A stretch of 64,000 bases of DNA from Candidatus Limnocylindria bacterium (GTDB lineage: Bacteria > Chloroflexota > Limnocylindria > P2-11E). Under the pieces are notes generated by a model. It saw only the letters and a list, made by a program, of their open reading frames with translations. It was not told the DNA's origin and did no database searches. Positions 1 through 743 of this stretch are shown piece after piece; within the stretch, counting starts at the first letter, position 1, and every line of letters starts with the position of its first letter. The stretch is from the NCBI GenBank assembly GCA_041496945.1, contig JBGQFO010000003.1, positions 16,415 to 80,414 on the forward strand, in the 5' to 3' direction. The position numbers and the translations under genes were made by a program.

Positions 1-375
1 CTCTGCCGGGTGTACGTCTCGAAGACGATCGAGTGCGAGTACTGAGGCTCGCAACGCTCCCTCCGTGGGAGGGACCAGGGCCTCACCGAGGACGATTACG
101 CCGACCTGCTGCGCTTCGAGATTTCCGATCGCTACACGCCGCGGCAGAAGGCCGCCCTCCTCTACACGAGCATGCTGGTGTGGGATCCCGAGGGCGCGGA
201 CGAGGTGGTCTGGGCGAGGCTCCGGGAGCACTTCGGCGATGCCCAGATCGTCGAGCTCGGCTCGTTCATCGCCGTGACCTTCGGCCAGCAGCGGCTCATC
301 AAGACCTGGCACGTCGGACACAACGAGCTGCCCGGCGAGCCGGGCGCCGGCCTCAGTTCCGAGGCGTCGCGCTGA
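1..375 (+). CDS. Carboxymuconolactone decarboxylase (CMD)/AhpD-like protein, 5' partial, with in-frame TGA at 43-45 (candidate selenocysteine)
   Basis: Frame 1 is open from the window edge apart from one TGA. It reads LCRVYVSKTIECEY-TGA-GSQRSLRGRDQGLTEDDYADLL, which fits the CMD/AhpD core spacing C-x-x-C-(12 aa)-G-l-t-e-e with the TGA at the 2nd Cys. The last 67 aa are track ORF 172..375. Paralogous to the next gene. The stop TGA overlaps the next ATG (TGATG). Confidence 0.6.
43..85 (+). promoter_or_regulatory. Candidate bacterial SECIS stem-loop starting at the in-frame UGA
   Basis: Lower stem 43-48 TGAGGC pairs with 80-85 GCCTCA. Upper perfect 7-bp stem 58-64 TCCCTCC pairs with 68-74 GGAGGGA. 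Apical loop GTG at 65-67, about 20 nt after the UGA, with G in the first loop position. Confidence 0.45.
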
Positions 376-743
376 TGCTGCGCCTCCCCGGGCGTACCGG
401 CTCCGAGATCCGCGCGCTGCAGCCCGGGGCGCGCGACGCGTGGTCGGAGATCGAGGCGAAGGTGCTCCACGCGGGCGTCGCGGACCAGTCGCTGAAGGAG
501 CTGTGCTTCCGCTACCTGGCGAACGAGGTCAACGTCGACGCGTACGTCGGCCGCGAACGGCTCGCGCTCGACTGGACCTACGCGATCGCCTACGACTCGG
601 CCAAGGCCGACGACGGGCTCTGGTCACGGTTGCACGCGGCGTTCAGCGAGCCCGAGCTGGTGGATCTCGGCTGCGCGATCGGTTTCGAGCTCGGGCGGCA
701 GCACTGGCGCCGGAGCGTGGGGCTGCCGGGTCGCGGCGCCTGA
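375..743 (+). CDS. CMD/AhpD-like family protein (paralog lacking the CxxC motif)
   Basis: This is the C-terminal 122 aa of track ORF 33..743, starting at internal ATG 375 (MLRLPGRTGSEIRAL...). It aligns with the upstream gene (LKELCFRYLANEVNVDAY versus LCRVYVSKTIECEY-). The first part of ORF 33..743 is an out-of-frame run-on. Confidence 0.75.
   Translation: MLRLPGRTGSEIRALQPGARDAWSEIEAKVLHAGVADQSLKELCFRYLANEVNVDAYVGRERLALDWTYAIAYDSAKADDGLWSRLHAAFSEPELVDLGCAIGFELGRQHWRRSVGLPGRGA

Follow-up and report, generated by a model that had tools for sequence, protein, structure and literature searches.

A conserved in-frame UGA and a covarying coding-region hairpin point to a CxxU selenoprotein of the CMD/AhpD fold in Limnocylindria

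In 2005, Zhang, Fomenko and Gladyshev reported AhpD-like (COG2128) and CMD domain-containing (Pfam02627) selenoproteins of the Sargasso Sea that bear a CxxU motif (PMC1088965). A 2026 review again covers AhpD/CMD selenoproteins, together with several NCBIfam models for selenoproteins of AhpD type (PMC13188914). An earlier note on the DNA studied here had stated that CMD/AhpD-like selenoproteins are known from bacterial surveys, and both sources bear this out; since such CxxU proteins have been catalogued since 2005, the gene described below introduces no new principle. It lies at the left edge of a 64,000-nucleotide stretch of DNA, the window, which corresponds to G000:C3:16415-80414, G000 being the window's own genome. 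Limnocylindria, the class to which this genome belongs, are abundant, uncultured Chloroflexota of soil and freshwater. Like the Sargasso Sea/GOS CxxU selenoproteins, the predicted product combines a small CMD/AhpD fold with Sec in the second position of CxxC, a SECIS element directly behind the UGA and widespread Cys homologues. The Sargasso Sea/GOS proteins are marine, whereas the Limnocylindria form comes from soil Chloroflexota and is always followed by a motif-less paralogue.

We propose, with a probability of roughly 93%, that the gene encodes a 189-codon CMD/AhpD thiol/selenol oxidoreductase in which the UGA at 43-45 specifies selenocysteine through SelB and a hairpin at 58-74. The UGA is conserved, homologues carry Cys in its place, selection acts at the protein level downstream of it, and conservation and covariation are both seen in the hairpin. 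Each refuting condition set out in the note was checked and none overturned the reading; of its proposed SECIS, the lower stem alone lacks support.

Frame 1 of the window (plus strand) is open from position 1 to 375, the in-frame TGA at 43-45 being the sole stop before the TGA at 373-375, exactly as the earlier note had read it. Translation across the TGA at 43-45 gives TIECEY-U-GSQRSLRGRDQGLTEDDYADLL. The note also held that the window edge cuts the gene, and DNA upstream in the contig does extend the frame, to a GTG start 195 nt before the window (G000:C3:16220, position 1306 of locus L001). The full gene thus has 189 codons, and its 3' two thirds (1-375, plus strand) supply codons 66-189 plus the stop. 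The N-termini of orthologues and homologues coincide with this GTG, beginning M/V-ARISYV or MPRISYV. Read as selenocysteine, the TGA at 43-45 (plus strand), conserved in orthologues and replaced by Cys in homologues, would be residue 80 of a 189-residue product with the redox motif C77-E-Y-U80; the TGC at 34-36 (plus strand) encodes Cys77, the first residue of C-x-x-U, which is invariant among 22 aligned homologues.

Recovery of the upstream sequence, as the note had advised, yields a full-length CMD protein: the read-through translation scores 36.4 bits against Pfam CMD (PF02627; cut-off 23), and the window fragment alone just 19.5 bits. An AlphaFold (AF2) model of the full protein (pLDDT 76, pTM 0.78) has the all-helical AhpD fold and places CxxU at the start of helix 78-82. 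The top Foldseek matches in the PDB are all AhpD/CMD proteins (probability 1.00, TM up to 0.83), the best being Pseudomonas aeruginosa AhpD 7xw1, PA0269 and Atu0492. PA0269 (PDB 7xw1, 2ijc, 2o4d) is the closest solved structure, with an E-value of 7e-10, a TM of 0.83 on the target and a CxYC motif in the same place as CEYU. It shares 28% identity with the Limnocylindria protein, has Cys rather than Sec, and is shorter (~145 aa), lacking the N-terminal 45 residues. The claim that the motif and the residues behind it match the CMD/AhpD core in exact spacing stands in part: HMMER aligns PA0269 here without gaps and so with equal spacing, while U and the Gly of G-L-T-E are separated by 11 residues, not 12.

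The active site departs from that of canonical AhpD. In the Mycobacterium tuberculosis type of AhpD, CxxC is followed by a His at +4, forming the CxxCxxxH proton relay. PA0269 likewise has a His four residues after its second Cys (CAYCVNMH), whereas the Limnocylindria family has the motif C77-E-Y-U80-G-S-Q-R84, and Q83-R84-S85 is invariant in the 22 homologues. Throughout that alignment of 22, the catalytic His of CxxCxxxH is absent and Arg84 occupies its place. Membership of canonical AhpD was considered and rejected on this ground, and with Arg84 in place of the His an AhpD-type mechanism is only an analogy.

TIGR01926 (peroxidase-related enzyme), the model given for 'AhpD-like protein' selenoproteins (PMC13188914), is matched at 29.9 bits against a cut-off of 81.8, and searches of the read-through protein against NF041047 and NF041238 gave no match at E <= 0.1. 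The best NCBIfam match is NF053654, 'GroundWater_YciW', a YciW-related (seleno)protein family that likewise contains Sec and Cys forms. The architecture is shared almost from end to end, with residues 12-159 aligned to positions 13-160 of the 179 in the model. At 47.8 bits the gene falls far short of the equivalog cut-off of 310 and is therefore not a member. With none of the specific NCBIfam cut-offs reached, the Limnocylindria protein is, as judged from profile scores, a separate subfamily within CMD.

Related genomes were searched with the read-through protein, and orthologues of 75-89% identity were recovered. All 44 orthologous loci carry the same single TGA codon, in the context IEC[EDNHS]Y*GSQRS, and 3 distant metagenome genes have this TGA as well. 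Within the genus, an orthologue was found in 10 of 24 other species, and 11 genus orthologues have the TGA; across the family, TGA orthologues occur in 34 genomes of 5 genera. They also occur on 12 GenBank MAG contigs titled Candidatus Limnocylindria or Chloroflexota, and on one labelled Solirubrobacteraceae. This last, a 148-kb contig (L061, CAWJNZ010000010.1) of a MAG assigned to that Actinomycetota family, bears a Sec form of 63% identity with the hairpin at the same position, which points to horizontal transfer or to a problem of binning or labelling.

Full-length homologues of ~190 aa and 51-71% identity have Cys opposite the TGA. Among the best 120 database homologues the residue at this site is Cys in 115 and 'W' in 5, in agreement with the proposal that the TGA stands at the second redox Cys; for the 4 of the 5 'W' entries with DNA on record, the codon is TGA in every case. 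Public gene calls for four JGI metagenome contigs (L084, L087, L088 and L089) give the Sec-UGA as Trp. Such short contigs were apparently called with a code in which TGA means Trp, so that a false W has entered the active site of database proteins. Long ORFs in G000 end in TGA more often than in any other stop (691 of 1344), which rules out a genome-wide reassignment (code 4 or 25), and the decoding of this UGA is site-specific recoding, not a changed code. Congeners hold further, distant CMD-like frames at 24-27% identity with one in-frame TGA each (G003:C17:215-568, G018:C186:1196-1579, G002:C8:38363-38728 and G025:C5:20513-20929; none was seen in G000), and these may be additional CxxU selenoprotein paralogues.

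Selection on the coding sequence is uniform along the frame. The dN/dS ratio is 0.177 upstream of the TGA, 0.165 over the 126-nt stretch from the TGA to the ATG at 172 (codons +13 to +42), and 0.153 beyond that ATG (codons +43 to +88). Values so alike on both sides of the TGA indicate that the whole frame is translated as one protein. Whether orthologues terminate at the TGA had been named as a check; none does, as 44 of 44 keep the TGA together with purifying selection downstream. Synonymous change behaves differently: within each of two hairpin registers, dS is 0.24-0.29 in codons +1 to +11 and 0.58-0.84 elsewhere, a 2.5-3 fold reduction.

The SECIS core is a 17-nt hairpin at 58-74 (plus strand) that begins 12 nt after the UGA, with arms UCCCUCC (58-64) and GGAGGGA (68-74) forming a perfect 7-bp stem around a GUG loop (65-67); the coordinates originally given for this upper stem and loop were exact. 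For bacterial SECIS elements the published constraints are a loop of 3-5 nt whose first or second position is G, a stem of 6-8 bp, 19-20 nt from UGA to loop and an MFE limit of -7.5 kcal/mol (PMC13188914). With its GUG loop, 7-bp stem, 19 nt from UGA to loop and -25.3 kcal/mol, the hairpin lies within all four constraints, and the SECIS-like geometry proposed for the upper stem and loop is upheld. It resembles the bacterial SECIS model (PMC13188914, Fig. 2) in having G and then G or U in the loop and 19-20 nt between UGA and loop. It differs in the very small triloop of most variants and in the lack of a conserved lower stem, and only one of the two registers has a bulged U. An Rfam E-value scan of the gene region returned no relevant match, and no Rfam model fits the hairpin.

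Taken as a single sequence, the hairpin does not clearly exceed chance. Folding of the 48 nt from the UGA in G000 gives -25.3 kcal/mol, with a z of -2.9 against shuffles, but for this one sequence, in a gene of 70% GC, synonymous recodings with genome codon usage are just as stable by MFE, and 10-22% of them have a perfect stem of 6 bp or more at the same place. We therefore dropped thermodynamic stability as evidence. The significance of the hairpin comes from conservation and covariation across orthologues, and for the SECIS assignment we rely on these together with rare codons and suppression of dS.

A perfect stem of 6-8 bp spans +12/14 to +29/30 after the UGA in all 44 TGA loci, in nine sequence variants, and a stem stands at the same place in the 3 distant TGA metagenome genes (53-58% identity) in 3 further variants. 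It is absent at that place in the 3 Cys-form genes examined. In the closest Cys-form homologue (L082/L083, 71% identity), the 5' arm CUCUCC is kept and the 3' arm is degraded (CGCGAG) over nucleotides +13 to +30 after the TGC, which looks like a SECIS decayed after a switch from Sec to Cys. Within the genus, G011 has UCUCUUC-GUG-GAAGAGA and the rest UCCCUCC-GUG-GGAGGGA, a difference of two C-G to U-A double changes that are synonymous and bring in rare codons (TCT 2.8%, CTT 5.4%, GGA 8.6%, AGA 1.4%); rare codons used in the stem include these TCT, GGA and AGA codons and also AGG (4%). Other genera (group B) use a second register, CUCUCCG-GGG-CGGAGAG, which again has 7 bp and a triloop and is shifted by one nucleotide, the peptide changing with it from RGRD to RGGE. 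The three distant metagenome genes, L087-L089, read CUGUCCA-GGG-UGGACAG, with C-G replaced by G-C at one pair and G-C by A-U at the closing pair.

For the pair counts, sequences of the second register were aligned without gaps, since a covariance model built from the genus alignment misaligned that register, for want of the needed shift, and was not used here. Over 23 distinct sequences, 97.5% of cells pair, compared with 40-64% after the partner is offset by 1-3 columns; the covariation score, with double changes at two pairs, was reached by 0 of 500 shuffles. Few compensatory events underlie these counts, and much of the sequence set consists of close relatives. Conservation of the hairpin in orthologues carrying the TGA had been named as a check, and the hairpin is indeed kept there through compensatory changes. 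The lower stem fared less well. A stem of 43-48 with 80-85 had been described, and it is present in the sequence, where the MFE fold extends it to 43-50 with 78-85 (43-85, plus strand; fold of G000 only). As a conserved element it was rejected: several orthologues disrupt it, the other group's consensus fold does not contain it, and it is probably not functional.

One competing explanation takes the TGA as a true stop that leaves a 79-residue N-terminal fragment and possibly also a second product, of 67 residues, begun at the ATG at 172, or supposes low near-cognate read-through as Trp or Cys. We regard it as very improbable. A downstream ORF with an ATG does exist (172-375, 67 residues), and neither selB nor tRNA-Sec was found in the G000 assembly. 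Against this, the 126 nt between the TGA and that ATG evolve at a dN/dS of 0.165, as do its other parts; each homologue is one polypeptide of ~190 aa that has Cys at the site; a hairpin with compensatory changes goes with the TGA and is lacking from Cys forms; and selD of G000 also requires UGA decoding.

The Sec machinery, for which a genome search had been urged, gives a divided picture in G000 and a clear one in its relatives. G000 is a MAG of 2.2 Mb and 70% GC, 80% complete and in 185 contigs. It contains selD (337 bits; G000:C37:5616-6542, minus strand, outside the window), itself a selenoprotein gene with an in-frame TGA at the Cys17-equivalent position (LCAG*GAKLGP); a GC-rich hairpin lies behind this TGA, starting at +13 after the UGA. 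Searches of the 80%-complete assembly for selA (TIGR00474, PF03841), selB (TIGR00475), the SelB wing domain (PF09107) and tRNA-Sec (RF01852, ARAGORN) found none of them, and tRNA-Cys, Ile, Phe and Trp are likewise missing from it. In the genus, selA was matched in 25 of 25 other genomes searched. Counting G000, selA and selB are above their cut-offs in 23 of 26 genomes and tRNA-Sec in 19 of 26, and ARAGORN reports tRNA-SeC(tca), anticodon UCA, in the three loci checked. The search thus succeeded for selD in G000 and for the other three genes in congeners, and it came up empty for those three in G000 itself; the lineage uses Sec, and we tentatively read the absences in G000 as assembly incompleteness.

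The same absences would be expected if G000 had lost its Sec-insertion genes and the gene were a recently stranded relic that still works in congeners. This we likewise consider very improbable: selA, selB, the SelB wing domain and tRNA-Sec are all missing, yet so are four ordinary tRNAs from an assembly that is 80% complete and in 185 contigs, selD retains its in-frame UGA, and gene and hairpin show no damage and share 87-89% identity with their counterparts in congeners equipped with the machinery. That the TGA is a pseudogene lesion or assembly error is more remote still, for although a single substitution separates TGA from the Cys codons TGC and TGT, mutation or miscalling would have to recur in 44 independently assembled loci of at least 5 genera and on 3 metagenome contigs, where the only other stop or frameshift is an extra TAG in one draft genome.

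If the selenoprotein reading is right, the UGA at 43-45 would be decoded as selenocysteine during translation, with SelB carrying Sec-tRNA(Sec) presumably binding the 17-nt G-rich-loop hairpin (58-74) inside the coding sequence. By analogy with AhpD-fold CxxC proteins, Sec80 would act as the attacking nucleophile in place of the second Cys of AhpD CxxC, and Cys77 as the resolving residue that forms a selenenylsulfide. The substrate could be a peroxiredoxin-type partner, or another oxidised thiol or a peroxide. The enzyme may also join the product of the next gene downstream, a motif-less CMD paralogue, in a hetero-oligomer.

This paralogue is a 122-codon gene at 375-743 (plus strand) that joins the selenoprotein gene by a TGATG stop/start overlap (stop 373-375, ATG 375-377). 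The distal part of the selenoprotein had been described as paralogous to the next gene, and the two products indeed align at 25% identity (E 3e-13), with a gap exactly over the motif: the partner lacks the ~30-residue segment that holds the CxxC/U motif and the SECIS. Scanning the partner gene (375-743) against Pfam gave no match. A counterpart small gene, at 60% identity, also stands behind Cys-form homologues, so the selenoprotein and its motif-less paralogue make up an old two-gene module in which the conserved partner may be a non-catalytic subunit. A hetero-oligomer of the selenoprotein and the 122-aa partner would be a reasonable hypothesis. Upstream, a gene for an LVIVD-repeat beta-propeller protein (L001 47-1328, plus strand) ends 173 nt before window base 1; its stop lies 20 nt inside the start of the selenoprotein gene, so the two may be co-transcribed. 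A TPP enzyme gene on the opposite strand (748-2439) has no obvious link to the selenoprotein gene.

A more ambitious reading, which we hold only tentatively and think rather unlikely as a whole, is that of an unnamed CMD subfamily, C-x-Y-[U/C]-G-x-Q-R-S without the catalytic His, built as an obligate two-gene module, perhaps a heteromeric seleno-oxidoreductase with a non-AhpC substrate, in which the SECIS dictates protein evolution. The heteromeric part draws on the obligate pairing with the motif-less paralogue. The effect of the SECIS on the protein would be seen where Leu/Val and Glu/Gln keep one pair and where the stretch behind QRS is frozen in Sec forms alone. Ten residues long, this stretch is near-fixed in TGA forms and highly variable, deletions included, in Cys forms. 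At nucleotides +16 and +28 after the UGA, L087-L089 differ from L054 and others by the coupled changes Leu to Val (CUC to GUC) and Glu to Gln (GAG to CAG), through which a C-G pair becomes G-C and pairing is kept; this coupling is protein covariation driven by RNA pairing.

For annotation, the gene is a case to correct, as gene callers split it at the UGA or, in four JGI metagenome calls, turn the UGA into Trp. For the biology of the lineage, the analysis adds a family-wide selenoprotein to Limnocylindria and demonstrates the use of Sec in this group. The 47 TGA forms, set beside close Cys forms, provide a natural example of a coding-region SECIS that constrains both codon choice and amino-acid sequence.
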